From: an uncultured Chitinophagales bacterium
GTDB lineage: Bacteria; Bacteroidota; Rhodothermia; Balneolales; Natronogracilivirgulaceae
Direction of reading: 5' to 3'
Assembly (NCBI GenBank): GCA_964505385.1
Contig: CAZDIA010000008.1
Coordinates: forward strand, 18,658-82,657
Length of the DNA: 64,000 nucleotides
In this document: piece by piece, positions 17,335 to 45,047 of the stretch
Position numbering within the stretch: the first letter of the stretch is position 1
How the letters are laid out: every line of letters begins with the position of its first letter
The notes under the pieces: model-generated
What the model was told of the DNA's origin: nothing
The model's input: the letters and a program-made list of their open reading frames with translations, nothing else
The model's database searches: none
Translations under genes and position numbers: made by a program

Positions 17335-18708
17335 TTATTTAACCAGCGTCATTTGATTGCTAATTATCTCACCGTCAGCTTGCAACCGGTAGATATATAC
17401 ACCAGAGGCCAGATTAGAGCCGTCAAAGCTGACTTGATGCATACCGGCCTCCACCTGACCGTCGACCAGCGTTTTAACCCGCTGGCCAAGGGTGTTGTAC
17501 ACCGAGAGTACAACCTCTGTATCTGCCGGAAGTTCGTAACCAATCGTTGTAACAGGGTTGAACGGGTTCGGATAGTTCTGGCTCAATGCTATCTCATTAG
17601 GCAGTTCTGAATCATACTCATAATCACTACTGGTTACGTTTTCCGGGAAGGCGGTGTTGCCATCCGGATAAGCTGCCATAAGCTCAACGCCCATTACATC
17701 TTCGTCATCGATTCCTGCATAATAACCGTTTGCAAGCAATACGCCTGCTTCACCGCCATCATCTTCAGCGTTGTAGATGAAAACACCAAGAGGATCAGTG
17801 TCATCGGGATCGGAGCCTGTAATGTAGAGTTCGAGAGTGTGAAGATCGGCTGGAACATTGATGTATCCCTGCGCATCTCCAAACTCGAAATCCTGAGCAA
17901 GGGGCTCTTCATCGCCTTTTATCCAAAGATCCACGGCAATAGGAGTATCCGGGACGGCGTGATACAGCAGAAGCGCAACTTCATCTTCTACTCCACTGGT
18001 TTTCTGAGCTTCATGGAAATCGATATCGAACGAAGTAGGTTCACCCTCTTCATCAAATTCACCACGTGCAATGGCAACGTATTCGTCCTGAGCTTCAAAG
18101 GTGAACTCGGTGGAGAGCAGTACTTCCTCCTCTCCTGCAGAAGTTATCGAAATTGAAATCTCTTCACCGTGAGGCACCTCTTCGAAACCGGTTATATCCT
18201 GAAATTCAATCCCGGCGAAATCAGGTTCTTCTTCGGCGGGATCAGCATTGATATACACATCCACGGATGAAGCAAACTCATTGGCAGATGCGTGAATCAG
18301 CTGAAGTTCGGCTATCTCGACCAACTCCGGCTCTTCATCGTGCCACTGCTCACCGTCAAACCAGCCGTCACTGTTTCGCTCAAGGTCGTCGGTTTGCTGT
18401 GCATCCTCGGGATCACCATCGTTGAAAATCACCCTGTTCACCCACTCCGGCAGTTCATAACTCCACCAGACATCACCCTCTTCGGGCTCCTGCATGGGTA
18501 CTCCGGGCCAATCATCAAACAGATTATCGCCTTCATCTTCCCAGGCCCAGATATAGACTTCGTCCCAGTTATGAGGATTTTTGTAATGGACTGTGAAGGT
18601 TTCGTCTTCCTCCTGTACACTTTGAGCATTGAGCACTCCGGCAAAAAGAAATGGAATCACTAATGCTGCGGCAGAAACTATTTTAAAAACTGTATTCATC
18701 TTTATCAT
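17335..18708 (-). CDS. T9SS cargo: CBM25/26-like module + DUF4397-like repeats + type-A C-terminal sorting domain
   Basis: Signal peptide present. FTVHYKNPHNWDEVYIWAWEDEGDNLFDDWPGVPMQ...VIFNDGDPEDAQQTDDL resembles starch-binding CBM25/26 modules. LQLIHASANEFASSVDVYIN is DUF4397-like. The C-terminus NYPNPFNPVTTIGYELPADTEVVLSVYNTLGQRV...ASGVYIYRL...MTLVK is TIGR04183-type. Confidence 0.85.
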   Translation of the reverse strand: MIKMNTVFKIVSAAALVIPFLFAGVLNAQSVQEEDETFTVHYKNPHNWDEVYIWAWEDEGDNLFDDWPGVPMQEPEEGDVWWSYELPEWVNRVIFNDGDPEDAQQTDDLERNSDGWFDGEQWHDEEPELVEIAELQLIHASANEFASSVDVYINADPAEEEPDFAGIEFQDITGFEEVPHGEEISISITSAGEEEVLLSTEFTFEAQDEYVAIARGEFDEEGEPTSFDIDFHEAQKTSGVEDEVALLLYHAVPDTPIAVDLWIKGDEEPLAQDFEFGDAQGYINVPADLHTLELYITGSDPDDTDPLGVFIYNAEDDGGEAGVLLANGYYAGIDDEDVMGVELMAAYPDGNTAFPENVTSSDYEYDSELPNEIALSQNYPNPFNPVTTIGYELPADTEVVLSVYNTLGQRVKTLVDGQVEAGMHQVSFDGSNLASGVYIYRLQADGEIISNQMTLVK

Positions 18709-19164
18709 TCTATTCCTGGTTTATTTGAATATACAAAAGTATTTTCTTGTTTCTGTTCAAATTATTTATATAGTTAAATTTAATATTATACTGTATGGCA
18801 TTCCAGTTAAAAAATCAATCAAATAATTTCTTTGTTATTTTAAATTCAGCTCACTTCTGATTCCATTTCGCAATGAACACCCTTGTTTTTTCCTGACGCC
18901 TCCTATTTCGAAGTACTTTCTGAACTTTCTTTAACTTTTTATAACCTCCTGACATGACCCTTATTTAATGCTTGTAGTTGCTATAGTTTTTATTGTTTTT
19001 AAACCTGCTTATCGTTTGATGGTTGACGTTTTGATCAAGGGCAACATCTAAAAACAAGCATCAAACAAACTATTATCTTCAATTTGAAGTATATACAGTA
19101 GCTGCATCAAGTTTTATACGAAGTTAAGTACTCCCTTCAGCTATCTTTTCTCCCTTTAGGACCT

Positions 19165-19200
19165 AAAAAAGGGCACCGCTGTTGGGCGATGCCCTTTTTT
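19165..19200 (-). terminator. Rho-independent terminator of the 19227-23126 gene
   Basis: AAAAAAGGGCACCGC ... GCGATGCCCTTTTTT hairpin flanked by A- and T-runs. Confidence 0.7.
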
Positions 19201-19226
19201 ACATTTTACGCTATTTCAGGTTTAGA

Positions 19227-22200
19227 TTATTTAACCAGTGTCATCTGGTTGCTAATAACCTTGCTATCGGTTTGCAGACGATAGATATACACACCCGACG
19301 CCAGATTCGAGCCATCGAAACTGACTTCGTGCGTGCCGGCTTCCACGCGACCGTCTATCAGTGTTTCTACCTGCTGACCAAGGGTGTTATACACCGTGAG
19401 TTCAACATGAGTATCCGCAGGCAACTGGTATTGGATCGTTGTCACCGGGTTGAACGGATTCGGATAGTTTTGTTCAAGTCCGACTTCCTGTGGCAAATCA
19501 GTCATTATATCTTCAGCACTGACCGTTTGATCATCCTGGTTACCAAATGTATCATTTATTTCCATGTCTTCGGTAACCGAAATTTCCCGGTTAGGATCGC
19601 CTTCCCATTCGCCAAGGTCCCAAGTGGGGTCGTCTTCTACAAGGAAATACTTGTATTCGTGATCCCCTTCTTCAACCTCAAGTGTAAGAGCATAGATGTC
19701 ATCTTCGTCTTCAATAGGCTCAAACATGAAGTCCGGATTTTCGCCGGGTTCTGTCCATTCATCAGCAAAAGAACCGGAAACATAAACATCATGCACTTCC
19801 GGGTCATAGACTTCATCAGCTATAGCCTCACTCATATCCAAGTTAAATGTAACTTGAGGCAGAGGATCTGGTATCTCCATTGGCTCTTTTTCAAAGTCTA
19901 TACGGGCAGTTCCGTTATTTAATTCGATTATAAAGAAGTCATAACTGTCTGCTTCTTCATCGTAATAATAATCGACTGCTCCAGAGGCATTTGCGTTTTC
20001 AACATCGCCGAGTGACGCAGTAGGTTCAAAAAGCTTTGTATCTGCTAAATTACCTTCCGGTACTTCTGCATATTGAATCCGCGCCTGATCATCGGTATTG
20101 AAATTCGGAATCAAAGTAATGAAGGAGAAACTACCATCTTCTTCTTCATTCACTACTTTAATATTGTTGGAAAACTCCGGCATCATATATTCCGGAACAC
20201 TTCCGGCTACCGAACCATCCGAATTTACAAGTGCAGGCGTCATGCCATTGGCATTGAAGAGCCACTGATCTTCTCCAACCGGATAAGCATTCGGGTTCAT
20301 GCCCACTTCGCCCTCGAGATCTTCCTCTTCCACCTCAATGATTTCAGGGTTCTCGCCATCAAACTCTCCATTGTCCATGGAAAATACATAGATATATGGA
20401 GCCTGACCGGCCGCAGCTATAACCTGTGCTGTTCCATCTTCATAGCTTCCTACAACATTGATTTGATCGCCAACACGATGCTCGTTGTCGCTCTCAAACG
20501 AAATGATATTTTCGGGATCAGCATCAATACCGTCCCAAAGATGCACATGGAAAGGACCTCCGCCCCATGCATCAGGGTCTGCTGTATTGAGCGTCAACCC
20601 GGCCGCGATAATTTTTCCGTCTTCAGTAAAGTCGGCAACGTTTATATCAAATATGCTTTCCTCAAGCCCTTCTACTGAAAGCTCCTGAATAAATGAACCG
20701 TCGTAAGCATCGTGAAGCCGTGCATGATCCCGATTTGCATAAACCATTCTCTGATGTCCCTCAACAATACCAAAACCGCCACCTCGTGGATAGGTATCTT
20801 CTTCAAACCAGTCGGGAAGATTCCCCTCGGCATCTGAAAACTCCCAGTATTCCACAACCGGATCCGGCTCGATGTATTCTTCCACATTTTCCAGGGCAAA
20901 TTCATCCAGATACCAGGTATGATCTTCACCACCTTCAGGTGGATTGTCCGTATCCAGATCAAAAATGACCGTCACCTGATCCCAGTTGATTTCCTGATCC
21001 GCATCACTGAGATCCCATTCCAGTTCGATCCATTCGCCGGATTCGGTGATTTCAGCAATTATATCAGGAGTTTCTTCATCGCCAACCTGTTGTTCCAATT
21101 TCATTATACCTTCAATATCAGATCGGGGAGACCAAACTTGCATTCGAAAAACAGATTCATCGGTAAGATTAATCTGATCTTCCAAATGATAAAAGAAACC
21201 GGCCCAGGCTTGACCATCATCAACTTTTTCGTACTCCAGCACATAATCGGTTTCATTTACTCCTGTTTGATCAGGATTGGTTATGCGTGCCAGTTCAGCT
21301 CCATCAAATGGGAAGAAGGTTGGATCATGCCAATCAACCTCATCGGTATCCATATTGAATGCAAGTGGAAAGTCCTGCAGCAAGGTAGCATCATCCTCCG
21401 GAGGGGCTACGATGTCAATGCGTTCCTCGAGCTCAATATCAATGAAATCTTCAGATGAACGGGCGGTAACCTGTGGATTCTCTTGAAATATTGTTACAAT
21501 ACCACGCAGATTAAACGGCTCCTGTGGAATATTCTTTCCGAAGTAATCGAGGTCATCGGCCAGAGAGTGTGTTGTAAAGGTAGCCGGATCTTCATCACTG
21601 ATCGTCGGGTCGATGATATCATAGTTTTCATTGTTTTCGAAAACACCTTCATCGAGAAACTCGGTTTCCTCAATCTCCACCAGCATAGACTGATGCTCAT
21701 CTGCGGAAAAGTCCTCAAGGGCGATTTCAAATACTGGAAGCTCATTATCAGTGGAGCTTACGCCCGGGTTTTCCTGAGGCACGATCTGGCGGGTGTCAAA
21801 ATGCATTGAAAATTCAAATTCCAGATCTGTAATTCCATCTCCGATTTCAAAATCATCTCCGAGCACTTCTTCATTATTATCGACCAAAATCGCACCTGTT
21901 TCATCGGCAATGTAGTGCTGATTTCGGGTATCCCGGTCAATATAGGTTACGATCGCTTCGCCGGTTAGTGTGGCAACATCACCTTCTTCGGCTTCATCGA
22001 TGATCTCGGCTATGGTCTCGTATTCTGTTACTTCAGGTGGCTCTTCATCGGTTAACTCAGCATGATAAGAAGCTATTCCATTATTAGTAATCAGAAGTGA
22101 ACCTGTGAAGCTTCCATCATCATTAGCAACAAAAGATACACCACCGGTGCCATTAAGATTACCCTCTTCACCCAAGGCATCCATTTCGTGCACGATATAA

Positions 22201-23126
22201 GCATCGTCAGGATCGCCATCCGGAATTCCGAAAATCTTTGCTCCGTAACCAACGAATTCAGGCTGATCTTCTCCACCTTCAGCATAAGTGGTTATAGCAA
22301 GATAGTGGCTGCCATTTTCTTCTCCGAGATAATCAAGTTTTGTAGTCCTCTCAGAAATCAGATCAGTATCAATTTCACCAATATGGTCGCCATCTGTATT
22401 GAAAAGCTCAACCGGTGAACCAGAAGAAGTTACCGCAATATAGTCGGTACCGGGAATTCCAATTGCATTAGGATTTGTTGCTAATGAAAAATCCCCTTCT
22501 ATTTCAGTCGGCTCACTGTCAAAAGGCTCACCCTCGCCTTCTTGTTCAAACACAAATAATCTGAATGTCTCATCATCACTTATGGCATAAATTCTTGCTG
22601 TGCCGTCTTCGTAGCTTCCTGTCACATTGAAATAGCGAGCAAGAGATTTATCCTCGCCTTCTTCAATTTCATGTGTTAATACCTCTTGCGGGGCAGATTC
22701 CTGATCATCCCACAAATGTATTCTAAAAGGATGAAAATGATTTTCACCATAATTGGAAACCAGAAGCTTGCCATCATCAGTTACATTAGCATCACTGATT
22801 ACGAAAGTTCCTGATCCACCATATCCATCCATATCCAGCTCTCCAAGATCCTCTCCATCTTCGGGATCAAGCAAGTGGATACCAAAGTTATCTTCACTAA
22901 AGCCCTGGCCATATGCTTCAACCACAACTTCATCTGATCCGTTAACCCAGTATGCCGTACTTCGATCAACATTTTCCTGGAACCATTCGGGCAGATTATC
23001 ATTTGCTACTGATCTTTCCCATAGGGTCTCAACATTTTGGGCAGCAGCTTTATCAAACTGTAAGCCTGCAAACACGACAAGTAGCAGAGTAGAGGCTAAA
23101 AGTTTACTTAGTACCCTTTTCATCAT
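19227..23126 (-). CDS. giant (1299 aa) hyper-acidic multidomain T9SS cargo protein
   Basis: Signal peptide MMKRVLSKLLASTLLLVVFAGLQFDKAAAQ. It carries two copies of an unnamed propeller-like domain (aa ~30-360 and ~770-1110) and a central OB-like/beta-sandwich region. A CBM20/48-like module is also present (VTFNLDMS...VYVSGSFADEWTEPGENPDFMFEP...YKYFL). It ends in a type-A CTD. Confidence 0.9.
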   Translation of the reverse strand: MMKRVLSKLLASTLLLVVFAGLQFDKAAAQNVETLWERSVANDNLPEWFQENVDRSTAYWVNGSDEVVVEAYGQGFSEDNFGIHLLDPEDGEDLGELDMDGYGGSGTFVISDANVTDDGKLLVSNYGENHFHPFRIHLWDDQESAPQEVLTHEIEEGEDKSLARYFNVTGSYEDGTARIYAISDDETFRLFVFEQEGEGEPFDSEPTEIEGDFSLATNPNAIGIPGTDYIAVTSSGSPVELFNTDGDHIGEIDTDLISERTTKLDYLGEENGSHYLAITTYAEGGEDQPEFVGYGAKIFGIPDGDPDDAYIVHEMDALGEEGNLNGTGGVSFVANDDGSFTGSLLITNNGIASYHAELTDEEPPEVTEYETIAEIIDEAEEGDVATLTGEAIVTYIDRDTRNQHYIADETGAILVDNNEEVLGDDFEIGDGITDLEFEFSMHFDTRQIVPQENPGVSSTDNELPVFEIALEDFSADEHQSMLVEIEETEFLDEGVFENNENYDIIDPTISDEDPATFTTHSLADDLDYFGKNIPQEPFNLRGIVTIFQENPQVTARSSEDFIDIELEERIDIVAPPEDDATLLQDFPLAFNMDTDEVDWHDPTFFPFDGAELARITNPDQTGVNETDYVLEYEKVDDGQAWAGFFYHLEDQINLTDESVFRMQVWSPRSDIEGIMKLEQQVGDEETPDIIAEITESGEWIELEWDLSDADQEINWDQVTVIFDLDTDNPPEGGEDHTWYLDEFALENVEEYIEPDPVVEYWEFSDAEGNLPDWFEEDTYPRGGGFGIVEGHQRMVYANRDHARLHDAYDGSFIQELSVEGLEESIFDINVADFTEDGKIIAAGLTLNTADPDAWGGGPFHVHLWDGIDADPENIISFESDNEHRVGDQINVVGSYEDGTAQVIAAAGQAPYIYVFSMDNGEFDGENPEIIEVEEEDLEGEVGMNPNAYPVGEDQWLFNANGMTPALVNSDGSVAGSVPEYMMPEFSNNIKVVNEEEDGSFSFITLIPNFNTDDQARIQYAEVPEGNLADTKLFEPTASLGDVENANASGAVDYYYDEEADSYDFFIIELNNGTARIDFEKEPMEIPDPLPQVTFNLDMSEAIADEVYDPEVHDVYVSGSFADEWTEPGENPDFMFEPIEDEDDIYALTLEVEEGDHEYKYFLVEDDPTWDLGEWEGDPNREISVTEDMEINDTFGNQDDQTVSAEDIMTDLPQEVGLEQNYPNPFNPVTTIQYQLPADTHVELTVYNTLGQQVETLIDGRVEAGTHEVSFDGSNLASGVYIYRLQTDSKVISNQMTLVK

Positions 23127-23602
23127 ATTTTTATCTCCGTTTAGTGTTTAGTGTAATTTTCACTCCAACAGTTATAAGGTCTTAGCTAACATTATATTAA
23201 ATTTGCATCTCTTAACAAAGTATAACATGTATATTTTGATCAAAAAATCCGGTTCAGTAACCAGCATTCAAGAGGTGTTTAACTCCGTTGCTATAAAGTT
23301 TATGCGACGACTTAAGATGCTGATTGCAAGTAGATTAAGCAGTCATAGATTTTATATCCCAACAAACAGTTAGTTATTAAAACAAATCTATGTAAATATT
23401 GACACACGTCTTAGCAAATGACGAATAATATTAATTTTAATAAGGTTATAAAGTGGGGATGTAAAAAAATGGAATCATTTCCTGGTGAATAATTCGGGTT
23501 AGTGAGACTGATTAGAGCTACAGGAATTTTATTTTAGGCTCACTAACATGATTTAAAATTCTTCTATTAAACCTTAAAACTTTTACGCTGTTATAATTCC
23601 AA

Positions 23603-24514
23603 ATGAAAATCTCAGGCACCTTCCTCGACGAAATCACCCATGATATCCCGGCACAAAACTGGGGCCCTAAAGAGTGGGCAGCCGACTTCGACGCCATGAA
23701 GGCGGCAGGTATCGATACCGTGATTCTGATCAGAGCAGGTTACAAAAAACAGGCGACCTTTAATTCGAAAGTATTACAAAAAAAGGCCGCTGCCCGTCCG
23801 GTTCACCTCGATCTGGTGGATCTGTTTCTCTCCGAAGCCGAACGATGCGGTATGGATTTGCTTTTCGGCACCTACGATTCCGGCGAACATTGGATTGACG
23901 GAGACTACGAACGAGACCTGGCCATCAACAAAGATTTTTGCAGCGAGGTGATTGACCTTTACGGAGACCGAAAAGCTTTTAAAGGCTGGTATTTGTGCCA
24001 CGAGATTGATACCTATAACCCTAAAGTAATGCGGGTGTATGATGAGCTTTCATCCCACCTGAAAAACCTGAAAGACGGTCCGATTTTGATCTCCCCGTAC
24101 ATCAAAGGAGTTAAACAATTCGGTGATCAGGCCATCAGCCTGGAAGATCACGGCAAAGAGTGGGAAAAGGTATTCCGCGAGATTGAAGGTAAGGTAGATA
24201 TCGTGGCCTTTCAGGACGGTCAGGTTTCCATAGAAGAACTCAGTGATTATCTGTGGATAAACCATGAACTGGCTTCCCGGCACGGAATCCAAAGCTGGAG
24301 CAATGTAGAAAGTTTTGACCGGGATATGCCGTTCAAGTTCCCGCCGATCGGCTTTGAAAAACTGCTCTCCAAAATTGAAGCGGCAACTGAAGCCGGCGTC
24401 GATAAACTCATCACGTTTGAGTTTTCGCATTTTATGAGTCCGAATTCATCATACATCTCAGCCAGGCATCTGTATAATCGGTACATGGAATGGTCTCAAA
24501 ATAGTAGCAAATGA
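23603..24514 (+). CDS. DUF4434 family protein (glycoside-hydrolase-like TIM barrel), cytoplasmic
   Basis: MKISGTFLDEITHDIPAQNWGPKEWAADFDAMKAAGIDTVILIRAGY matches the DUF4434 N-terminal pattern. No signal peptide. An ATGA overlap joins it to the next gene. Confidence 0.75.
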   Translation: MKISGTFLDEITHDIPAQNWGPKEWAADFDAMKAAGIDTVILIRAGYKKQATFNSKVLQKKAAARPVHLDLVDLFLSEAERCGMDLLFGTYDSGEHWIDGDYERDLAINKDFCSEVIDLYGDRKAFKGWYLCHEIDTYNPKVMRVYDELSSHLKNLKDGPILISPYIKGVKQFGDQAISLEDHGKEWEKVFREIEGKVDIVAFQDGQVSIEELSDYLWINHELASRHGIQSWSNVESFDRDMPFKFPPIGFEKLLSKIEAATEAGVDKLITFEFSHFMSPNSSYISARHLYNRYMEWSQNSSK

Positions 24515-28410: not shown

Positions 28411-28479
28411 ACTATTTATCTTTACAATAATGGTGTTAGGTCAAAGAATAATTTTTCAATCTGGTAAAATCAGTTCGAT

Positions 28480-28515
28480 TTTGAATGGAATCTAATTTCT
28501 CCTTAATTATATTTG
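28480..28515 (+). promoter_or_regulatory. Putative promoter of the GHL10-GHL10-symporter operon
   Basis: TATATTTG at 28508-28515 lies 37 nt upstream of the ATG at 28552. TTTG at 28480-28483 is upstream of it, with a somewhat long spacer. Confidence 0.4.
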
Positions 28516-28551
28516 AAACTAAATCTAATATCTGTTGGATTAAGAAAATTT

Positions 28552-33950: not shown

Positions 33951-33972
33951 TTAGTTTGGAAGAATAAAAATC

Positions 33973-35304: not shown

Positions 35305-35386
35305 AGTATTTGCTTTTTGAGGGTGAATGTGAATTGTTTTCGATTTTTTCGCAATTAAAATACACTGGTTAACTGGGTTCTGATAG

Positions 35387-36889: not shown

Positions 36890-36907
36890 ATATGAGACCG
36901 TTAGCAA

Positions 36908-39900
36908 TTAAAAAACTATATTTACGCTGAAACCCAGACTGCGGTTCTCCGGCATGGAAAAAGATTCCAGCCCCTGTGCATTACCGATATTGAAACTTCC
37001 TTGTGCCGGACTAAAACCGGGTGTGTCTTTGTGAAAGTAAAACAGATTGCGTCCGATGAGGGACACTTGTAGGCTTTGAAAGGGAGTTACATCTACCCAA
37101 TTGACCGGGAGATCATAAGTAAATACAATTTCACGCATTCTCAGATAAGTCGCATCATATACAAACTCCTCGGTTATCGGGCTGCCACCGCCTACCCGGC
37201 CCCAATAATCCTGCGGGTTTACGGCTTTTTCGTTTTCCACATATTCGCCGTCATCAATTTCCACAACGCCTTCGGCAACATAGCCTTCACGATCTTCCTC
37301 ATCCAGATCGCGGGTATCATACCATTCCTGGCGCCCCTCAAGTGTAAATTCCGGAAAACCTCGCTGAGCGGCAAATGAATTGGTGAAAGAATAGACATCT
37401 CCGCCGACGGATATATCGACCAGTGTGCTTAATGAGAAATTCCGGTAGGTCACCTCATTGAAAAATCCTCCGGTAAAGTCCGGATTGAAATTCCCGAGTA
37501 CATGGGTTCCATCGTCTCGAACGGGAAGCCCTTCGTCATCTATGATTCGTTCTCCGTCATCATTGCGTTTATAGCGCTCACCGACGATATCACCAAACGG
37601 TTCTCCTACTGACGCCTGAACTGTAGCTCCCTGAATCTGCCCGAGGAAAAAGTTTTGGAGCTCTCCGGTTAGTTCAACTACTTCATTTCGATTGAAACCG
37701 ATATTGAACCTGCTGGTCCACTCCCATCCGGTTTCTGAATCAACCGGGATAAATGTGAGTGAGCCTTCAATACCTTCGTTTCGGATCATACCTGCATTAA
37801 TACGTGCGGCTGAAAAGCCAGAGGTTCTCGAAACCGGAATGGGCAAAATCTGATTCCGGGTATTTTCCCTATAAATTCCCATGTCAAGTTTGACACGTTC
37901 ATTAAAGAATCGCAAATCCAAGCCTGCTTCAACTGATCTTGTAATTTCCGGTTTCAGATCAACCGGAGGTAATTCGGTTGGAAGGTCTGCAAATTGTTGC
38001 CCTTTGTGGCCGGGATTTACGCTGTAGGTGAAATTTGTAACAAAGGGCGGCCCGCCGGAGCCAACCTCCGCCCAGGAAGCCCTGACCTGGCCAAAGGGAA
38101 ACACTTCGGAAATCAGATCGAAAGCTTCGGTAAATACGAATGATCCGCTAACCGAGGGGTAAATAAACGGCAGGTTTTCAACCGGCAACGTGGAATCCCA
38201 GTCAACCCGGCTTGTGAGATCGAGAAATGCATAGTCCCGAAATCCGAACTCAGTGGTTGCAAATACCGATTGAACTTCAGCACGGCTGAGTATACTTATA
38301 TTATTAGCGGATTCGGCATTGGAGATATCATAAAAATCCGGAATAAATATTCCCTCTCCGATGTAGCCGACTGTGCGGTCATTAAATCTGCGATAACTTC
38401 CGCCGATATTGGTTTCAAAATCTAAATCTTCACTCAAAGCCCGGCTATACTGCATCATTGCCCGCACATTGAATTCAACAAAGTTGCGGTCTCTTGTTGT
38501 AAAAGTGGCATCGGTACGATAAGGAGTATATTGCGCCCGCCTGTATTCCCGGATTTCATTAAAATAATCCAAGCCGGTAACAAGGTTAAAATTCAGGTTT
38601 TCGCTTGCATCATAGTTAATGCGGGCAAAACCGTAGAAACGGTCACGTTCATCCTCACTGATATTCAGGTTATGTGCCCAAAAAGGATTCATATTACGGG
38701 TATCCGAACCTTCCTGCGCTGCGGCATCCCATGTGCGGGCAAGGCCTTCACCTGTACGGAAATTCTCCAGGTCGGAAAGCCGCTCACTGGTTGGCATGCG
38801 AATCAGTGCCTGCATCGGGTTGTCGGGGTCTTCTGCAAGTGGGGGGCGATTATCAATCGACTGTGTGACGTAATTTATTCGGGCTTCAACATTAAGATCA
38901 TCAAAAAAGTCACGGCCGGCTCGGAGTGACACAAAATGTCGTTGCAGATCATTATCCGGATAATTGCCTTGGTTCATCGTATTGCTGTACGAAATCCGGT
39001 AGGTGTGATCATCTCCGCCTCCTGAAAGTGCCAGTATATTATTGGCGGTAAACGAGTTTTGAAAATATTCATCAAACCGGTCGGGTTGAGCCTCGTAAGG
39101 CCTGACTTCGCCGGTCCAGTCCAGAGCCATGGTTCCGTCCATAGCCGGTCCCCAGCTGTTAGTTTCCGAGTCCGGAATGATGTAGTGCTCATTTGCTTCA
39201 TCAAACTCAAGAGTACCGTTGGAACCACGCCCGAAATCAGTCTGCATCTCAGGCATTATATAGGGCTGCTCCACAGTAAAGTTAGAGGTGAATTCAACTC
39301 CGATTCCCGGCCGCTCTTGGCCCGATCGCGTCGTAATTTCCAAAACGCCATCGGCAGCACGGCTTCCGTAAAGCGCTGCGGCATTCGGCCCCTGAAGAAC
39401 ACTCATCGATTCAATTTCGGCCATGTTTACCTGATTAAGTCCGGAACCGAAATCTCGTCCGCCCTGAGCTGTTGCACTCATTCCGCCGCTGTTGTCAATC
39501 GGGACGCCGTCAACTACGATCAAAGGTTGACTTGTGCCGGTTAGTGAACGATGCCCCCTGATCACAATCCTCGTGCTGCCGTCGGGACCGGAACCGAGAC
39601 CGTCAATCTGAACATTGGAAACACGACCTTGAAGAGCAGAAACGGCATTCATGCCGCCACTGCGACTGATTTCCTCTCCGCCGAATTCCTGAACGGTGTA
39701 TCCGAGAGATTTTTCTTCCCGCGTCATACCAAAAGCAGTTACCACCAGATCTTCCCCCACGAGAGCTTCCGGTTGCAGAAAAACCTCAAGCTCGGTCTCT
39801 TCATCGACGGTAACTATCTTTTCGCTGAATCCAAGATATCTGAAAATCAGCTCATTATGCCCCTCAGGTACCGTAATTTCAAAATTACCATCAATATCAG

Positions 39901-40078
39901 TACTTGTCCCGAAATCGGTGCCCACAACCATTATATTAACACCGGCAAGCGGTTGGTCGCTTTCAGCATCGAAAACAGTTCCGCTGACATTAAAATCCTG
40001 TGCTGAAATGGTACTGAATACGCCGGCACAAAAAATTATTACTAAAGATAAAAAACGGAATAGTATCGATATTTTCAT
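36908..40078 (-). CDS. susC: SusC/RagA-family TonB-dependent outer-membrane transporter
   Basis: 1056 aa. N-terminal carboxypeptidase-regulatory-like domain (VSGTVFDAESDQPLAGVNIMVVGTDFGTSTDIDGNFEI), then a plug (VLQGPNAAALYGSRAADGVLEITT), then a barrel ending in LGFSVNIVF. Confidence 0.93.
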   Translation of the reverse strand: MKISILFRFLSLVIIFCAGVFSTISAQDFNVSGTVFDAESDQPLAGVNIMVVGTDFGTSTDIDGNFEITVPEGHNELIFRYLGFSEKIVTVDEETELEVFLQPEALVGEDLVVTAFGMTREEKSLGYTVQEFGGEEISRSGGMNAVSALQGRVSNVQIDGLGSGPDGSTRIVIRGHRSLTGTSQPLIVVDGVPIDNSGGMSATAQGGRDFGSGLNQVNMAEIESMSVLQGPNAAALYGSRAADGVLEITTRSGQERPGIGVEFTSNFTVEQPYIMPEMQTDFGRGSNGTLEFDEANEHYIIPDSETNSWGPAMDGTMALDWTGEVRPYEAQPDRFDEYFQNSFTANNILALSGGGDDHTYRISYSNTMNQGNYPDNDLQRHFVSLRAGRDFFDDLNVEARINYVTQSIDNRPPLAEDPDNPMQALIRMPTSERLSDLENFRTGEGLARTWDAAAQEGSDTRNMNPFWAHNLNISEDERDRFYGFARINYDASENLNFNLVTGLDYFNEIREYRRAQYTPYRTDATFTTRDRNFVEFNVRAMMQYSRALSEDLDFETNIGGSYRRFNDRTVGYIGEGIFIPDFYDISNAESANNISILSRAEVQSVFATTEFGFRDYAFLDLTSRVDWDSTLPVENLPFIYPSVSGSFVFTEAFDLISEVFPFGQVRASWAEVGSGGPPFVTNFTYSVNPGHKGQQFADLPTELPPVDLKPEITRSVEAGLDLRFFNERVKLDMGIYRENTRNQILPIPVSRTSGFSAARINAGMIRNEGIEGSLTFIPVDSETGWEWTSRFNIGFNRNEVVELTGELQNFFLGQIQGATVQASVGEPFGDIVGERYKRNDDGERIIDDEGLPVRDDGTHVLGNFNPDFTGGFFNEVTYRNFSLSTLVDISVGGDVYSFTNSFAAQRGFPEFTLEGRQEWYDTRDLDEEDREGYVAEGVVEIDDGEYVENEKAVNPQDYWGRVGGGSPITEEFVYDATYLRMREIVFTYDLPVNWVDVTPFQSLQVSLIGRNLFYFHKDTPGFSPAQGSFNIGNAQGLESFSMPENRSLGFSVNIVF

Positions 40079-40456
40079 TCTCTACAGGTTAAGATTAAAT
40101 ATTTTCCAAAAAAACAGATTGCTAAGTAGAAGTAGTTTTTTTCGATATCCGACTAAATCGGAATCTTTGTCTGATTTTGATTCACTTGAAATCAATTTTA
40201 TTCCCGGATTTTAATGGGATTCTATTCAATTGAAAACTCTCAAAATGCGTCGAATGCTAAGCATTCTGACTTTTTTGGGCAGTTATCATTCCGAACCAAA
40301 GATTCAATACATAAACCACCCTAAATATGCTTTTTATTTTTAAAAAATCAATGTAAAATTGCTGATATATTAACAAATTATAACATTATTGTTTTAACAT
40401 TGACCCAACATTACGGGTAATCCAAGTTGGTACACTTTATCATTATCAAAGAAATT

Positions 40457-42430
40457 ATGCGAGTAATAAGCTTTTCCGCCATTACTTCACTGTCCATTTT
40501 TTTATTCGGATGTGAAGTCGCTGAAAATCAGAATTCTGATACCAAAACAAATCACGAAGATATAACTGCTGATGTCCTTATTGCAGGCGGCGGAACAAGC
40601 GGTATCACTGCCGGTTTGCAGGCTGCAAGAGATGGTGCGGAAACCGTGATTGTAGAGCCTACACCCTGGCTCGGCGGCATGCTCACTTCTGCGGGTGTAA
40701 GTGCCACTGATGGCAATCATCAACTGCCATCGGGTATTTGGGGAGAGTTCCGGCAGCATTTGTATGATCACTACGGCGGACCGGATGAGGTTGAAACCGG
40801 ATGGGTCAGTAATACGCTTTTTGAACCTTCGGTAGGTAATGACATCTGGAACCGTATGGCCGAGGTAGAAGACCTGCTTACCGTTTATCACGGATACTAT
40901 GTTGAAGAGGCCCACACGGCAAATAACCGGGTAACCGGTGCCATGTTTAAGAGCGGCGATGGTGAACGTCTCACAGTGGAAGCTGGTATCTCCATTGATG
41001 CTACCGAATACGGAGATCTTATGGCTTTATCCGGAACCGAATACCACCTCGGTTTTGACTCCCGTGAAGATACCGGTGAGGAACTTGCTCCTCATTATGA
41101 TAACGAGATTGTTCAGGATCTCACCTACACCGCTATTCTGAAGGATTATGGTGAAGGTGAGGATAAAACCATTGAACGGCCAGCAAATTATTACCCTCAA
41201 ATGTTTACCGGTGCGTGCAAAGAAGTTGCTGAGGATCCCGATGAGTTTGACGGAGTGGATTGCGAAGAAATGCTGGACTATGCCCGTTTACCGAACGATA
41301 AATTTCTGATCAACTGGCCTATTCACGGAAATGATTACTACCTGGAAGCCATGGAGCTTGACCACCATGAGCGAAAACTGGCCTATGAGGCTGCAAAGGA
41401 TAAAACGCGGCAGTTTATCTATTTCATCCAGACTGAAATCGGATTTTCACATCTTGGCCTCGCCGATGATGAATATGATACCGATGATCTGTTTCCCCAC
41501 ATGCCTTATCACCGGGAAAGCCGGCGGCTGGAGGGAGTGGTTCAGTTCAATATGATGGACATGAAAGACATGTATCAACGCCCGCTGTATAAAACAGCCA
41601 TTGCTGTTGGTGATTATCCGCTTGACCATCATAGGAGATTAAATCCGGGAACTGAAAAACTCGCCGAAGGTGACATTCCGCCCTACGAGTTTGAAACTGA
41701 TATTTTCCCTTCCATACCATCCTACGCCATTCCCTATGGCGCCATGGTTCCCGCACAAACGGACGGATTACTGGTTGCGGAAAAAAGCCTGTCGGTTACC
41801 AGCATTGCCAACGGGGCTACCCGGTTGCAGCCGGTGGTTATGGGAATTGGACAGGCGGCGGGCGCCGCAGCTGCACTGGCGGCAACATCAGGATATCAGC
41901 CTCGAGATGTGAATCCCAGAGAATTACAGAGTAATCTAATCGAACAGGGCGCATGGATGCTGCCGTTTCTGGATTCTACTCCGGATGACTGGCATTTTGA
42001 ATATCTGCAAAAAACCGGTTTAAGCGGAGTCCTGAAAGGCGAAGGCATTCCTGTCGAATGGGCAAACGAAACCCGGATTTACCCCGACAGCTCGGTTACT
42101 GCAGATGTTATGGATGAAGCCATGCTAACTGTCGGTGAAGAAATTTCAACCTCCGGCAATGAATTCGTAACTAGAGGAGAAGCGGTTGAACTGTTGGCGG
42201 CTTTTATAGAAGATACAGAAACCGATGGAATTGAATTTGAAGATGTTGACCCTGACACCGACCTCTATGGTTATCTGAATAGGTTCGATGGTGCCGGACT
42301 GCTGGAATACTGGGCCGAGTCGGACCGGTTTTATCCTGATGAACCTCTTGCCCGGAAAGAACTTGCTTATCTGATACATGCAATATTCGATCCGTTTGAA
42401 GAAAATCCCGGACTAAACCCGGAAGAATGA
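40457..42430 (+). CDS. FAD-dependent oxidoreductase (PF12831-like) lipoprotein with C-terminal SLH-like repeats
   Basis: The ATG at 40457 gives MRVISFSAITSLSIFLFGCE. The dinucleotide-binding motif is DVLIAGGGTSGITAGLQAARDGAETVIVEPTPWLGGMLTSAGVSATDG. The C-terminal ~130 aa contains two F..D....Y...L...G...G........TRGEAVELL / ARKELAYLI segments. Confidence 0.85.
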   Translation: MRVISFSAITSLSIFLFGCEVAENQNSDTKTNHEDITADVLIAGGGTSGITAGLQAARDGAETVIVEPTPWLGGMLTSAGVSATDGNHQLPSGIWGEFRQHLYDHYGGPDEVETGWVSNTLFEPSVGNDIWNRMAEVEDLLTVYHGYYVEEAHTANNRVTGAMFKSGDGERLTVEAGISIDATEYGDLMALSGTEYHLGFDSREDTGEELAPHYDNEIVQDLTYTAILKDYGEGEDKTIERPANYYPQMFTGACKEVAEDPDEFDGVDCEEMLDYARLPNDKFLINWPIHGNDYYLEAMELDHHERKLAYEAAKDKTRQFIYFIQTEIGFSHLGLADDEYDTDDLFPHMPYHRESRRLEGVVQFNMMDMKDMYQRPLYKTAIAVGDYPLDHHRRLNPGTEKLAEGDIPPYEFETDIFPSIPSYAIPYGAMVPAQTDGLLVAEKSLSVTSIANGATRLQPVVMGIGQAAGAAAALAATSGYQPRDVNPRELQSNLIEQGAWMLPFLDSTPDDWHFEYLQKTGLSGVLKGEGIPVEWANETRIYPDSSVTADVMDEAMLTVGEEISTSGNEFVTRGEAVELLAAFIEDTETDGIEFEDVDPDTDLYGYLNRFDGAGLLEYWAESDRFYPDEPLARKELAYLIHAIFDPFEENPGLNPEE

Positions 42431-42514
42431 CTTTATTCTGTCAATTCTTGCGCCTGATAAAATCATTTGATTATAACACCTTTGTTTTGCCTCATTTTTA
42501 ATCCTCTCAAAGCT

Positions 42515-43732
42515 ATGATGTACTTCTACCGTTTGTTTTTGTTCTCCATAATCTTTTTGTTTCCTGTTTCACTGATTTCCCAGCCGCTTGAGTGGATGGA
42601 AATCACCGATGATTACGAGCTGCCGGAAGGCCTTCGGTTTTTCGGTCACAGCTTTGAGGACTCGAACATTGAAGCGTGGTATCTCGAGCTGGACCTGAAT
42701 GAAAATGGTCTGGCAGTCGAGGCGATTCCTGGTTCCGATTTTCAGTCCATCTCAGATTACGACGATAAAGAGGGTGTTTACGCAGCCGTTAACGGAGGCT
42801 ACTTCGCCGGCGAGGACGTAGTCTCAGCTGTCGTCACTCCGGATGGCGATGTGCCGACCCGCAACATCGCGACACTGAATCGGGACGGCAACACTCATCA
42901 TGTCACCCGAAGTATGTTCAGCCTGGATGATGAAATTAAGCCATCAGTGGACTGGATTTATCATCACGGGCTTAATGTTGATGATATCTACCGGTATGAG
43001 GAACCACTTCCCAACGCTCCGGGTGAACCGTCGGAGTCACCACCGGCAGTGGATGACGGTGAAATCATGGAGGGTCTGGCAACCGGCATCGGCGGCGGGC
43101 CGGTTCTAATCACCGAAGGTGAGGAGAATATCACGCACGATGATGAAGTTTTTTTCGGATCCGGTATTCAGGCTGGTTCAAACAGAGCCCGCACGGCTGT
43201 GGGTTATACCGAGGACAACCGGGTCATAATGATGGTGGTAAGCGAAGCCGGAAGCAGTACCGGTGTTACGTTAAGCCGGCTTGCAGAAGAACTGCTTGAA
43301 CTCGATGTAGTAGCGGCGATGAACCTGGACGGTGGAGGCTCTTCTCAAATGACGCTTGATCAGGAAAATATACTATCGACCGGTAGATCCATTCCGAATG
43401 TGCTGGCGGTTGTATCCAGAGGCCGCGTAACTTCAGCTGCGGTTACCGGAGATGATGAGCTTCCCCGAAGTGTCCGGCTTCATCAGAATCATCCCAACCC
43501 GTTTAATCCGGATACATCCATACCATTCTCAATTGATCATGCAGTACCGGTAACTCTCACCATTTATGATATGACCGGCAGAAAGGTGGCAACTGTGATA
43601 CAAAATGAAACCTATTCTGCCGGCCGGCATTCCGTGCGTTTTGATGCCTCTGAGTTGAGTACCGGAACCTACGTTTACCGATTGTCAACACCGGAGATGA
43701 CACGGTCACGTTTAATGACATTAATCAGGTAG
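42515..43732 (+). CDS. phosphodiester glycosidase (NAGPA / DUF2233-like) with T9SS CTD
   Basis: AAVNGGYF, GIGGGPVLI, ARTAVGYT and AMNLDGGGSS are the phosphodiester-glycosidase family motifs. The C-terminus reads NHPNPFNPDTSIPFSIDHAVPVTLTIYDMTGRKV...STGTYVYRL...MTLIR. Confidence 0.85.
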   Translation: MMYFYRLFLFSIIFLFPVSLISQPLEWMEITDDYELPEGLRFFGHSFEDSNIEAWYLELDLNENGLAVEAIPGSDFQSISDYDDKEGVYAAVNGGYFAGEDVVSAVVTPDGDVPTRNIATLNRDGNTHHVTRSMFSLDDEIKPSVDWIYHHGLNVDDIYRYEEPLPNAPGEPSESPPAVDDGEIMEGLATGIGGGPVLITEGEENITHDDEVFFGSGIQAGSNRARTAVGYTEDNRVIMMVVSEAGSSTGVTLSRLAEELLELDVVAAMNLDGGGSSQMTLDQENILSTGRSIPNVLAVVSRGRVTSAAVTGDDELPRSVRLHQNHPNPFNPDTSIPFSIDHAVPVTLTIYDMTGRKVATVIQNETYSAGRHSVRFDASELSTGTYVYRLSTPEMTRSRLMTLIR

Positions 43733-43739
43733 CTTATAG

Positions 43740-45047
43740 CTATTTGATAAAACTCATCTGTCGCTGCATCACGTGATCACCGGCCTGCAACCGGTACAGA
43801 TAGATACCTGATGAAAGTCCGGAAGCGTCAAATTCGGAAATATGGGTCCCGGCCTGCATTTGTTCCTCATCCAACAGGGTTTTTACGTAGCGACCTTGCG
43901 CTGTAAACACGCTGAGGGTTACAGCAGCAGATTCCCTGAGTGTAAATTCTATCTGCGTGACAGGGTTAAACGGATTGGGATAGTTTTGCCGGAGTTCAAA
44001 GTCACTCGCAACTTCAGCATCTACCGGTGAGGAGGTCGTGGTTTGCTCAAGCGGGAAAGAGGCAATTGCATTGTTTGTCGAGAGCATCACCAGTGTATTA
44101 CGATTATGATCAAATTCGACTGCACCGGTTGCATTGGGGTTTTGATACACACTCAACTGAGATGATGACGAGATGAGCTGCGGATTTTGTAAATCGGTGA
44201 TATCCACCAGATCGATAACCTGGTCCGCATCCCCTGTACCCCGGGGTGCTGTCGCAATGACCTGAAGGGTGTCGAAATCGGCGAAATCGATATTCATACT
44301 TCCGGTAGAGACAACCTCACCCGGAATAGAACTTCCGGTTTCACCGGTTTCCGTACTGATTTTCGTCGGCTCCGTACCCGATCCGTTGACCCATAAGCTG
44401 TCCTCACCGGCAATAGGTGAAATACCTCCGCGTGCAATACCGGCCGGAGCATTCAGAAAATCAGGTTCCGAGAGGCTATGATCATCAGCGTCATACTCCA
44501 GTTTCAGGATATCTTCATTACCGGTACCGGCAAAGTACAGCCAGATGCCATCTCCGGTTTCATCAATACCCAGGGCATCGCCATAGCGGGCTGCATTGAC
44601 ATCTCCCTGGAAAAGGATTTCCATTTCGCTTGCTTCATCTTCCCACATATAGATAATGAAATCTTCTTCGGAGGAGTCAACCACACTATTGGCTGCGAAA
44701 ATGGTACCATCTTCAGTAGCACCAACTTGATTGAGTGCCAGAAACCCGGTTTCAATAACCTCCTCTGTATCCAGGGTTCCTTCCACATTTCCGGTGGATG
44801 AATCCAAGACATAAACAGCCGGCTCCTCGGTATTGCTTGCCACCAAAATATTTCCGGTAGCCGGGTTTAAACTCATACCTCGCGTGGCGTTATCGTCGTT
44901 GTCCAACCAATCCTCATCGATGGGTAGAACTTCCCATTCTGCTGAACCAATCTCCAATTGATAGCTTTCCTGAAGGTTTTGGGTGTTGGCGGTGTAAAAT
45001 CCAATGCAAATTATGAGGCCTAACAGTATCGTCTGTTTCATGAGCAT
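43740..45047 (-). CDS. acidic T9SS cargo protein with unnamed propeller-like domain (paralog family)
   Basis: Signal peptide MLMKQTILLGLIICIGFYTANTQ. Motifs GATEDGTIFAANS, FIIYMWEDEASEME and RYGDALGIDETG are shared with 33973-35304 and 19227-23126. The CTD reads NYPNPFNPVTQIEFTLRESAAVTLSVFTAQGRYV...SSGIYLYRL. Confidence 0.85.
   Translation of the reverse strand: MLMKQTILLGLIICIGFYTANTQNLQESYQLEIGSAEWEVLPIDEDWLDNDDNATRGMSLNPATGNILVASNTEEPAVYVLDSSTGNVEGTLDTEEVIETGFLALNQVGATEDGTIFAANSVVDSSEEDFIIYMWEDEASEMEILFQGDVNAARYGDALGIDETGDGIWLYFAGTGNEDILKLEYDADDHSLSEPDFLNAPAGIARGGISPIAGEDSLWVNGSGTEPTKISTETGETGSSIPGEVVSTGSMNIDFADFDTLQVIATAPRGTGDADQVIDLVDITDLQNPQLISSSSQLSVYQNPNATGAVEFDHNRNTLVMLSTNNAIASFPLEQTTTSSPVDAEVASDFELRQNYPNPFNPVTQIEFTLRESAAVTLSVFTAQGRYVKTLLDEEQMQAGTHISEFDASGLSSGIYLYRLQAGDHVMQRQMSFIK

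Follow-up and report, generated by a model that had tools for sequence, protein, structure and literature searches.

Among the closest described systems to the locus reported here are the canonical Sus-type polysaccharide-utilisation locus (PUL) and the chitin locus of Flavobacterium johnsoniae. The latter holds a SusC/D pair, a key depolymerase (ChiA) that depends on the type IX secretion system (T9SS) and glycoside hydrolases (GH18 and GH20) of known activity, and it targets a beta-1,4-linked amino-sugar polymer. Here we describe a 14-gene island at positions 17335-45047 of a 64,000-nucleotide stretch of DNA from an uncultured, salt-loving relative of the Bacteroidota (contig CAZDIA010000008.1, positions 18,658 to 82,657; hereafter the window), whose nearest named relatives are Balneolaceae and Rhodothermaceae. 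The island very probably constitutes a single foraging unit for a glycan containing N-acetylglucosamine (GlcNAc)/N-acetylmannosamine (ManNAc) and mannose. Its PUL architecture is already known; the novelty lies in the enzyme set and in the conservation of that set across phyla without a characterised member.

Some of the relevant families have been studied elsewhere. DigH (YddW) of Escherichia coli is a denuded-peptidoglycan hydrolase that degrades peptide-free glycan strands (PMC12288456), and Cwp19 of C. difficile, the first GHL10 enzyme to be characterised, lyses M. luteus cell walls, albeit slowly (PMC5765458). A Deinococcus GHL10 enzyme, DogH, was reported to turn soluble starch into maltose (PMC9967864). 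The DGGGS motif is the invariant sugar-phosphate loop of phosphodiester glycosidases (PMC13474241). Growth on peptidoglycan fragments, in this case those of Bacillus cereus, has been described for F. johnsoniae (bioRxiv 10.1101/499715). In the Creative Commons-licensed and bioRxiv full texts searched, we found no report of the present cluster, of such a PUL or of a function for DUF4434/BT_0435, nor any PUL of the same composition. Within that literature, the proposal of a preliminary description of this DNA that the island is a candidate for an undescribed system is upheld.

Results

Gene content of the island

The open reading frame (ORF) listing of the window places exactly 14 large genes at 17335-45047, numbered g1 to g14 from left to right:

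g1, 17335-18708, minus strand: secreted protein with CBM26, DUF4397 and a T9SS type-A C-terminal domain (CTD)
g2, 19227-23126, minus strand: 1299-residue T9SS cargo with two copies of a ~330-residue DUF5018-C-like domain
g3, 23603-24514, plus strand: cytoplasmic DUF4434 TIM-barrel protein, marker of the conserved cluster
g4, 24511-25686, plus strand: cytoplasmic, probable N-acyl-D-glucosamine 2-epimerase (AGE; GlcNAc <-> ManNAc), translationally coupled to g3
g5, 25675-28410, minus strand: cytoplasmic GH38 alpha-mannosidase
g6, 28513-29754, plus strand: GHL10 lipoprotein of the DigH/Cwp19 family
g7, 29787-31775, plus strand: secreted GHL10 protein with Golvesin_C and a T9SS CTD
g8, 31816-33651, plus strand: inner-membrane Na+/sugar symporter (SSF)
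g9, 33973-35400, minus strand: T9SS cargo with a DUF5018-C-like domain, paralogue of g14
g10, 35387-36907, minus strand: SusD-like lipoprotein
g11, 36908-40078, minus strand: SusC/RagA TonB-dependent transporter
g12, 40427-42430, plus strand: PF12831 FAD-dependent flavoprotein, lipoprotein
g13, 42467-43732, plus strand: NAGPA-like phosphodiester glycosidase with a T9SS CTD
g14, 43740-45047, minus strand: T9SS cargo with a DUF5018-C-like domain, paralogue of g9, at the right border

The window also falls within an 80.7-kb metagenome contig (ENA ERZ27266009, k141_427983). Pfam and NCBIfam searches agree with the ORF listing in bearing out the 14 consecutive genes and the domains given in the preliminary description. 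Both features expected of a PUL are present. The gene for the SusD-like lipoprotein g10 directly abuts that of the transporter g11 without a gap, and the glycan enzymes (GH38, two GHL10 proteins, DUF4434 and the NAGPA-like protein) are co-localised within 28 kb. The transporter matches TIGR04056 with 572 bits against a cut-off of 368 and contains CarboxypepD_reg and Plug domains; the STN signalling domain was not found in it by Pfam. Its partner g10 scores 313 bits with SusD-like_2 and 306 bits with SusD-like, and has the lipobox VVAC/TDN. The symporter g8 matches SSF with 127 bits, and its closest solved structures are vSGLT and SGLT1.

Matches to Por_Secre_tail/TIGR04183 above the cut-off (23 bits for TIGR04183) occur in exactly six island proteins, g1, g2, g7, g9, g13 and g14. 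All six also have signal peptides and thus the characteristics of type-A T9SS cargo. Inspection of the N termini found no signal peptide in g3, g4 and g5, placing them in the cytoplasm. Of the other products, g6, g10 and g12 are lipoproteins, g8 is an inner-membrane protein and all the rest are secreted. The T9SS translocon SprA is coded 12 kb from the island, in an ORF of 2156 residues (57514-63984, minus strand; SprA_N, 316 bits) that ends ~16 nucleotides short of the window edge. The preliminary description had the number of sorting domains right, but it took T9SS display for a departure from the Bacteroides paradigm. Because relatives carry such CTDs too and SprA lies in the window, this is no departure in kind: CTDs on PUL proteins are the norm in this lineage, and outside Bacteroides such proteins are usually displayed by the T9SS.

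The island resembles a canonical Sus-type PUL in its adjacent SusC/RagA and SusD genes, in the putative binder (g9, DUF5018-like) that occupies the SusE/F position, and in having hydrolases that are lipoproteins or secreted, a sugar importer in the inner membrane and enzymes for the final steps in the cytoplasm. It differs from one in its six T9SS CTD proteins, in the lack of a hybrid two-component system (HTCS), SusR, an extracytoplasmic-function (ECF) sigma/anti-sigma pair and STN, and in its catalysts. These are GHL10, DUF4434, NAGPA-like and PF12831 proteins, with GH38 as the sole classical CAZy-type enzyme, a claim of the preliminary description that holds as far as Pfam detects. Similar to the chitin locus of F. 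johnsoniae, the island is a SusC/D locus outside Bacteroides with a putative T9SS-dependent depolymerase, but it has neither GH18 nor GH20.

Conservation across phyla

Eighty DUF4434 loci from more than 10 phyla, on contigs representing one genome per species, were fetched by DUF4434 protein alignment, and all of their ORFs and the island proteins were clustered jointly. The six neighbour clusters of DUF4434 with the widest occurrence are all island families: AGE (46 of the 80 loci), SSF (24), GHL10 (17), the PF12831 flavoprotein (16), GH38 (15) and SusC (10). The cluster ranked next is a spurious antisense ORF. SusD accompanies DUF4434 in 5 loci and NAGPA-like proteins in about 6. Three or more island families are found in ~37 loci, which belong to Balneolota, Rhodothermota, Bacteroidota (Saprospiraceae, Flavobacteriia, Cytophagia and Bacteroidales), Ignavibacteriota, Planctomycetota, Verrucomicrobiota, Sumerlaeota, the Bdellovibrionota-like Silvanigrellaceae and others.

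The conserved genes fall into two modules, one formed by DUF4434 and AGE with or without GH38 and NAGPA (module A), the other by GHL10 (x2), SSF and the flavoprotein (module B). The modules are separate in Gracilimonas tropica, lie less than ~25 kb apart in the Balneolaceae chromosome CP030887, and are merged into operon-like arrays in Saprospiraceae, Flagellimonas, Ignavibacteria and Fulvivirga. One such array reads SSF-DUF4434-AGE-GH92-flavoprotein-LacI-SusC-SusD-DUF5018-DUF5018-GHL10. In the island, g3-g8 and g12, with or without g10, g11 and g13, form a cross-phylum core, to which g1, g2, g9 and g14 are added as lineage-specific surface proteins. Since the gene association is conserved across phyla, chance adjacency is excluded, which answers the question raised in the preliminary description of whether the genes are merely neighbours. 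The genes define a conserved functional cluster, of which the window contains an unusually complete version equipped with both SusC/D and T9SS. The island thus appears to be one working catabolic unit, a PUL-type elaboration of that cluster in a Balneolaceae-like bacterium.

Two loci of relatives from the same sample as the window, L085 and L086, together have counterparts of all 14 island genes in the same order, with 41-93% identity. L085 carries those of g7-g14 (71-93% identity) and diverges directly past g14, whose homologue is 77% identical and is followed by a different flank; we therefore set the right border of the island at g14. The contig of L086 reads g1-like, g2-like with CBM26, DUF4434, AGE, GH38, GHL10, GHL10. 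As g1-like and g2-like genes precede DUF4434 there, g1 and g2 are part of the block in close relatives.

DUF4434 also occurs in halophilic and other cyanobacteria (L003, L017, L028 and L043), where it is 61-66% identical. The 10-kb flanks of these loci contain no AGE or GHL10, and GH38 once, so that its role there must differ from PUL-type foraging.

Cytoplasmic enzymes

The DUF4434 protein g3 (Pfam, 233 bits) is 48% identical to BT_0435 of Bacteroides thetaiotaomicron, the structure of which is PDB 4H41 (E 4e-87). Its AlphaFold2 (AF2) model, with a pLDDT of 91, is a (beta/alpha)8 barrel. After 4H41, the next fold neighbours are a GH5 mannanase, GH2, Cwp19 and a GH164 beta-mannosidase, at TM ~0.6. 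In the model, strand 4 (residues 126-131) is followed by the invariant pair H133-E134 and strand 7 (residues 268-272) by the invariant E273. Carboxylates after strands 4 and 7 are the mark of clan GH-A retaining glycosidases, and g3 is predicted from the model to be a retaining glycosidase of this geometry. DUF4434 proteins retain 60-71% identity across phyla, which suggests a narrowly defined small substrate.

The epimerase gene g4 overlaps g3 by 4 nucleotides. Its product matches GlcNAc_2-epim with 178 bits in Pfam. The NCBIfam AGE model scores 412 bits and that of cellobiose epimerase 73 bits. Alignment with the solved AGEs from pig, Nostoc and Anabaena (1FP3, 6F04 and 2GZ6) gives E values of 1e-100 to 1e-104, as compared with 1e-23 or weaker for cellobiose epimerase structures. 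Although the AGE score lies under the equivalog cut-off of 600, g4 thus looks like a genuine GlcNAc/ManNAc epimerase and not a cellobiose or mannobiose epimerase.

The alpha-mannosidase g5 matches Glyco_hydro_38N, Alpha-mann_mid and Glyco_hydro38C2, and its closest solved structures are 3LVT from E. faecalis and SpGH38 (2WYH) from S. pyogenes. The preliminary description called it MngB-like. It scores only 401 bits with the MngB equivalog model against a cut-off of 1138, which rules it out as an orthologue of this mannosylglycerate hydrolase. Its gene is convergent with g4 (24511-25686 and 25675-28410), and the 3' ends overlap by 12 nucleotides, leaving no space for terminators between the two.

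Secreted and lipoprotein enzymes

Both g6 (203 bits; lipobox LLCYGC/SESD) and g7 (207 bits) are full-length GHL10 proteins (PF02638; gathering cut-off 27.9 bits) with the family-conserved DG...D.R motif. E. coli DigH itself belongs to GHL10 (453 bits with this model), and its alignment with g6 has an E value of 4e-14; the two island proteins are 23-28% identical to it. Like DigH, g6 is a lipoprotein. However, DigH and Cwp19 both act on the wall of the bacterium that produces them, whereas g6 and g7 lie in a SusC/D foraging locus, and g7 adds Golvesin_C (67 bits) and a T9SS CTD (Por_Secre_tail, 32 bits). This architecture also occurs in G. tropica, in CP030887 and in one Sumerlaeota locus. We predict g7 to be a surface-displayed, endo-acting enzyme.

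In DUF4434 neighbourhoods, Golvesin_C has three fusion partners: NAGPA (in L016), GHL10 (in several lineages) and Amidase_3, a muramoyl-alanine amidase domain, in a Puniceicoccaceae locus (L006) where two GHL10 genes also adjoin DUF4434. A word-indexed search with this segment gave no match. An exhaustive HMMER search of 1.8 billion representatives gave the partners of Golvesin_C in its 79 closest relatives: GHL10 in 41, Amidase_2, class-A beta-lactamase-like domains and GH16 in 4 each, NAGPA in 2, and Peptidase_S13 DD-carboxypeptidase, GH66 and a chondroitinase-B-like domain in 1 each.

The NAGPA-like protein g13 matches PF09992 with 87 bits against a cut-off of 25 (Por_Secre_tail, 31 bits), and aligns weakly with the PDB structure of NAGPA, 6PKU (E 1e-6, ~100 residues aligned). 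With human NAGPA, the mannose-6-phosphate uncovering enzyme, and bacterial DUF2233 proteins it shares the catalytic-core domain and the DGGGS loop, located at residues 288-292 (nucleotides 43328-43342). Unlike these, it is a T9SS-displayed protein, and its Balneolaceae homologue in L016 is fused to Golvesin_C. Homologues of g13 adjoin DUF4434 in Balneolaceae, Rhodothermales, Planctomycetes, Paludibacter and Alistipes.

The flavoprotein g12 matches PF12831 with 315 bits and has the lipobox LFGC/EVAE. A fold search with its AF2 model (pLDDT 87) returned generic FAD-binding-domain matches alone (TM <= 0.31), with no further PDB relative and no functional lead. Public gene calls start g12 at Met11 (40457; 657 residues) and g13 16 codons downstream (405 residues), and the longest-ORF starts of both are probably too far upstream.

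Surface proteins

The remaining T9SS cargo proteins may serve to bind glycans. In g1, Pfam detects CBM26 (65 bits), DUF4397 (59 bits) and Por_Secre_tail (36 bits) behind the signal peptide, and no catalytic domain. CBM26 is a starch-binding family of carbohydrate-binding modules. A CBM had thus been hinted at correctly in the preliminary description, but the CBM20/48-like module also proposed there was not detected at E<=0.01. Among DUF4434 loci, conservation of g1 is limited to close relatives.

For g2, the Por_Secre_tail match is clear (41 bits) and those to DUF5689 and DUF5018 are weak. Residues 1-568 and 761-1075 of g2 each align with the N-terminal domain of a 1075-residue protein of L086, with which g9 and g14 align as well. 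A profile of this ~330-residue domain matches the C-terminal half of DUF5018 with an hhalign probability of 96.4% (E 1.3e-9). g9 and g14 are 35% identical over their full length (E 4e-77). They were also considered as paralogues of the NAGPA-like protein, which is ruled out as the CTD is the sole part they have in common with g13. The signal peptide of g9 (Por_Secre_tail, 35 bits) follows Met33, at ~35304, which is probably the true start, the longest-ORF start being too far upstream.

The same domain is found in large SusE/CHRD-containing T9SS proteins that adjoin the cluster in Rhodothermales and G. tropica, and DUF5018 proteins hold the slot after SusD in the versions of the cluster from Alistipes, Bacteroidales, Mariniphaga, Paludibacter and Fulvivirga. 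Given the DUF5018-C-like domain, CBM26 and the position after SusD, we regard g1, g2, g9 and g14 as candidate surface glycan-binding proteins.

Transcription units, regulation and flanks

The island comprises 6-7 transcription units in both orientations, with divergent promoters; besides g3 and g4, the genes of g6-g7-g8, g11-g10-g9 and g12-g13 are closely spaced. No helix-turn-helix (HTH), ECF, anti-sigma, HTCS, LacI, GntR or ROK domain was found in the 14 proteins or in the products of the flanking genes (7392-63984), tblastn found no homologue of the regulators of related loci anywhere in the window, and an Rfam scan found no riboswitch in it, its sole match being a tRNA gene at 4322-4393. 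The preliminary description is thus right that the island and its flanks are without a regulator. PULs usually have a linked regulator but can do without one. Its absence does not define the present system. Regulators of the GntR-HTH/periplasmic-binding-protein (PBP), LacI and NagC-like ROK kinds adjoin the same genes in Gracilimonas tropica, Flagellimonas, Fulvivirga, Saprospiraceae and Ignavibacteria, and two further Balneolaceae/Bacteroidetes loci likewise carry regulators of these kinds. Because orthologous loci keep them at equivalent positions, their lack in the window is a local loss.

The 13-mer TTAAAARATCAAT occurs four times in the intergenic DNA of the window against 0.75 expected. 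Of these copies, g1, g12 and g14 each have one upstream (18807, 40340 and 45083, the last on the minus strand), and the fourth is located between sprA and leuS (57485). We dropped it as a shared operator, as the copies have no extended similarity, are inconsistent in position and orientation, and include one outside the island.

On the left, the island is flanked by genes for cytochrome-c maturation, a metallo-beta-lactamase-fold protein, a TANGO2-family protein and an AAA ATPase; the cytochrome-c maturation cluster (8826-12822, minus strand) codes for a CcmF-like protein of 880 residues, CcmE and a CcmC-like protein. The right flank codes for a chorismate-binding enzyme, an AAA_14 ATPase, aminotransferases, LeuRS and SprA. 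Its first part (45239-49789; the chorismate-binding enzyme, the AAA_14/DUF4143 ATPase and an aminotransferase) is entirely unlike the corresponding part of L085 (14995-21971; DUF885, GDSL-like and Toluene_X genes), even though this relative is otherwise 70-90% identical. As the right flanks differ, the island lies at a rearrangement breakpoint.

Discussion

Proposed pathway

The analysis establishes the family assignments, the locations in the cell, and the conservation and modular make-up of the cluster. We infer the activities of the DUF4434, GHL10 and NAGPA-like proteins and of the flavoprotein, the substrate and the order of steps as follows. The T9SS would export four binders (g1, with CBM26, and the DUF5018-like g2, g9 and g14) and anchor them at the cell surface, and would likewise export g7 (GHL10 and Golvesin_C) and g13, a putative sugar-1-phosphodiester glycosidase. 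Together, the surface binders and these two enzymes would bind and cut an amino-sugar-rich polymer. The fragments would pass in through SusC/SusD (g11/g10), after which the lipoproteins g6 (GHL10) and g12 (flavoprotein) would process them further and the Na+ symporter g8 would import small saccharides. In the cytoplasm, the GH38 enzyme g5 would take off alpha-mannose and the DUF4434 protein g3 would split a beta-linked disaccharide. Finally, g4 would turn the released ManNAc into GlcNAc for central amino-sugar catabolism, which is coded elsewhere.

The nature of the substrate

The substrate that we tentatively favour, with somewhat less than even confidence, is a bacterial cell-wall glycan: peptidoglycan strands that have lost their peptides, along with wall polymers or linkage units joined via GlcNAc-1-phosphate, some of them bearing mannose. 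An example of a wall-polymer linkage unit is ManNAc-beta1,4-GlcNAc-1-P-6-MurNAc (MurNAc, N-acetylmuramic acid), and as a substrate it would give the NAGPA-like protein, DUF4434 and AGE each a role. The coupling of AGE to DUF4434 implies a flux of ManNAc/GlcNAc. Other amino-sugar genes are found in related loci, namely a NagB-PIG-L fusion (4 loci), NagC-like ROK (5), an AAC(3)-like N-acetyltransferase (6), NagZ-type GH3 with a T9SS CTD, NagX/DUF5009 and NagP-like permeases. In six loci from Chloroflexota and Bacteroidales (L024, L038, L044, L049, L051 and L054), DUF4434 is immediately preceded by the AAC(3)-family gene, a hint that the pathway includes the acetylation of a free amino sugar.

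Pointers to the cell wall include the characterised GHL10 enzymes DigH and Cwp19, which act on peptidoglycan, and the DGGGS motif kept by g13; the growth of F. johnsoniae on Bacillus peptidoglycan is an ecological precedent. An AmpG-family muropeptide permease occurs in 3 of the 85 related loci (beside NAGPA-DUF4434 in L016 and in two Paludibacter loci), and an LdcA-like muramoyl-tetrapeptide carboxypeptidase follows DUF4434 in one, from Ignavibacteria. Taken together, the epimerase coupling, the Golvesin_C fusions and these sporadic neighbours suggest an amino-sugar glycan and, more tentatively, the cell wall. Among the substrates listed in the preliminary description, amino-sugar polymers with phosphodiester-linked GlcNAc gain most; N-glycan or phosphomannan survives because alpha-mannosidases recur, while mannosylglycerate and alpha-glucan are weak.

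Several observations weigh against a cell-wall substrate. Neighbours specific to peptidoglycan are rare (Amidase_3 in 2, LdcA in 1 and AmpG in 3 of the 85 loci), and tblastn found no AmpG-, LdcA-, NagZ-, amidase- or NagB-like marker in the window, the only matches being to CTDs. The similarity to Gram-negative peptidoglycan recycling and Tannerella-type salvage, seen in the AmpG-, NagZ- and LdcA-like proteins and NagB of some homologous loci, does not extend to the window, where none of AmpG, NagZ, LdcA, AnmK and MurQ was found and the cytoplasmic steps are DUF4434, AGE and GH38 instead. In no locus was MurQ, AnmK or another etherase or anhydro-MurNAc kinase, MurK or a lysozyme-type enzyme seen. 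Alpha-mannosidase is a far steadier partner of the cluster (GH38 in 15 loci and GH92 in 4 others, as a lipoprotein in the Fulvivirga operon and in three more), yet peptidoglycan is free of mannose. g1 carries a starch-binding module, and Golvesin_C is also fused to GH16, GH66 and chondroitinase-B-like domains. The specificity of GHL10 is itself contested, given the slowness of Cwp19 on walls (PMC5765458) and the maltose made from starch by DogH (PMC9967864). Lastly, BT_0435, the 48% identical counterpart of g3, lies three genes from BT0438 and next to BT0439, a SusC gene linked to host glycans, which could point to host-type glycans. BT0438 is a GH89 alpha-N-acetylglucosaminidase that cleaved only para-nitrophenyl (pNP)-alpha-GlcNAc and was treated as an orphan gene; keratan sulfate and O-glycans of colonic mucin induced it.

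In its boldest form, the cell-wall proposal would make this the first dedicated pathway for eating walls of the Gram-positive type. T9SS-displayed GHL10 and NAGPA-like enzymes would detach and fragment peptide-free strands and GlcNAc-1-phosphate-linked polymers, DUF4434 would be the first beta-N-acetylmannosaminidase, acting on the universal ManNAc-beta1,4-GlcNAc unit to supply the coupled epimerase, and PF12831 would carry out a new periplasmic oxidation, such as one that strips the lactyl ether from MurNAc or one that attacks polyol-phosphate chains. We consider this full version speculative and distinctly unlikely.

Alternative explanations

The main alternative, credible though unlikely, is a eukaryote-type glycan, either a high-mannose N-glycan, possibly capped by a phosphodiester, or a fungal or protist phosphomannan. 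GHL10 would then be a new kind of endo-beta-N-acetylglucosaminidase that cuts in the chitobiose core, the NAGPA-like protein would uncap sugar-1-P-6-Man, GH38/GH92 would trim alpha-mannose and DUF4434 would be a cytoplasmic Man-beta1,4-GlcNAc beta-mannosidase. This would explain why alpha-mannosidases recur with the core (GH38 and, in Fulvivirga and three more loci, GH92), and it suits the cytoplasmic streptococcal and enterococcal enzymes that are the closest solved relatives of g5, the position of BT_0435 beside genes induced on host glycans, and the sole characterised NAGPA, which acts on GlcNAc-1-P-6-Man of N-glycans. The fold neighbours of DUF4434 include a GH5 beta-mannanase and a GH164 beta-mannosidase as well, but only at TM ~0.6. 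The enzymes of an N-glycan PUL are, however, missing: Pfam found no PNGase or GH92 and no GH18/GH85, GH20, GH2, GH125 or GH130 in the window, none of the latter families is among the 25 commonest Pfam families in the 132 ORFs within ~4 kb of DUF4434, and GH92 is present in only 4 of the 85 related loci. The window has no sialidase or sialate lyase either. Moreover, a ManNAc/GlcNAc epimerase coupled to DUF4434 has no part in the breakdown of Man-GlcNAc, and the fusions of Golvesin_C to muramoyl-alanine amidases and a DD-carboxypeptidase would be left unexplained. Mannosylglycerate or another compatible solute, suggested by the MngB-like match and by halophile relatives, was rejected: the equivalog cut-off is missed widely, and a small-solute pathway needs no SusC/D, T9SS surface proteins or secreted hydrolases.

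The remaining possibilities are all improbable. AGE-type epimerases serve sialate catabolism in Bacteroides, and the island could salvage an acidic or nonulosonic sugar that yields ManNAc, or else a small glycoside, in the manner of nanLET, with the SSF protein as transporter, DUF4434 in place of the lyase or hydrolase step, AGE as NanE and the outer-membrane genes as add-ons. Both systems place an AGE-family epimerase for ManNAc -> GlcNAc beside a transporter and a cleavage enzyme, and a four-gene GH38-DUF4434-AGE-SSF operon without any outer-membrane or secreted enzyme exists in Silvanigrellaceae and in proteobacterial metagenome-assembled genomes. Unlike nanLET, however, the island has no sialate lyase or sialidase, has a glycosidase-like TIM barrel whose model and invariant residues suit a two-carboxylate glycosidase rather than an aldolase, and uses an SSF and not an MFS transporter; the SSF family does include the sialate carrier SiaT (5NV9), which is among the PDB matches of g8, but g8 is nearer to vSGLT and SGLT1. 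GHL10, the flavoprotein and SusC/D also co-occur too often for add-ons. The chances are slightly slimmer that the genes serve housekeeping of the cell's own envelope (septal clearance of the DigH kind plus salvage) or are unrelated neighbours. DigH does act on its own septal peptidoglycan, the lack of a local regulator would fit constitutive expression, and the 6-7 transcription units run in both orientations. Yet SusC/SusD, T9SS-displayed proteins that bind or cut glycans at the surface and a Na+/sugar symporter all mark a foraging system, relatives have sugar-responsive LacI, GntR-PBP and ROK repressors inside the cluster, and unrelatedness is excluded by the cross-phylum synteny. Least probable by our estimate, and very improbable, is a starch- or glycogen-like alpha-glucan bound by the CBM26 proteins and cut by an amylase-like GHL10. 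The strong CBM26 match in g1, a further CBM26 on the g2-like protein of L086 and the starch-degrading DogH (PMC9967864) speak for it, but GH13, GH31, GH97 and GH77 are absent from the window, the CBM26 proteins are restricted to close relatives, and AGE, GH38, NAGPA, the NagB/NagZ/ROK neighbours and the amidase fusions are irrelevant to such a substrate.

Significance

Whatever the substrate, the cluster ties DUF4434 (of which 4H41/BT_0435 is an orphan structure), GHL10, NAGPA-like and PF12831 proteins to one pathway. This pathway is present in cultured, tractable bacteria, so that the functions of the four families could be assigned by simple assays. In oceans, soils, sludge and the gut, peptidoglycan and wall polymers form a large, nitrogen-rich reservoir of microbial necromass, to which, to our knowledge, no polysaccharide-utilisation-type locus has been assigned. 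If a cell-wall glycan is indeed the substrate, the cluster would provide a genetic handle on the recycling of peptidoglycan and wall polymers by Bacteroidota, Balneolota, Planctomycetota, Verrucomicrobiota and others.

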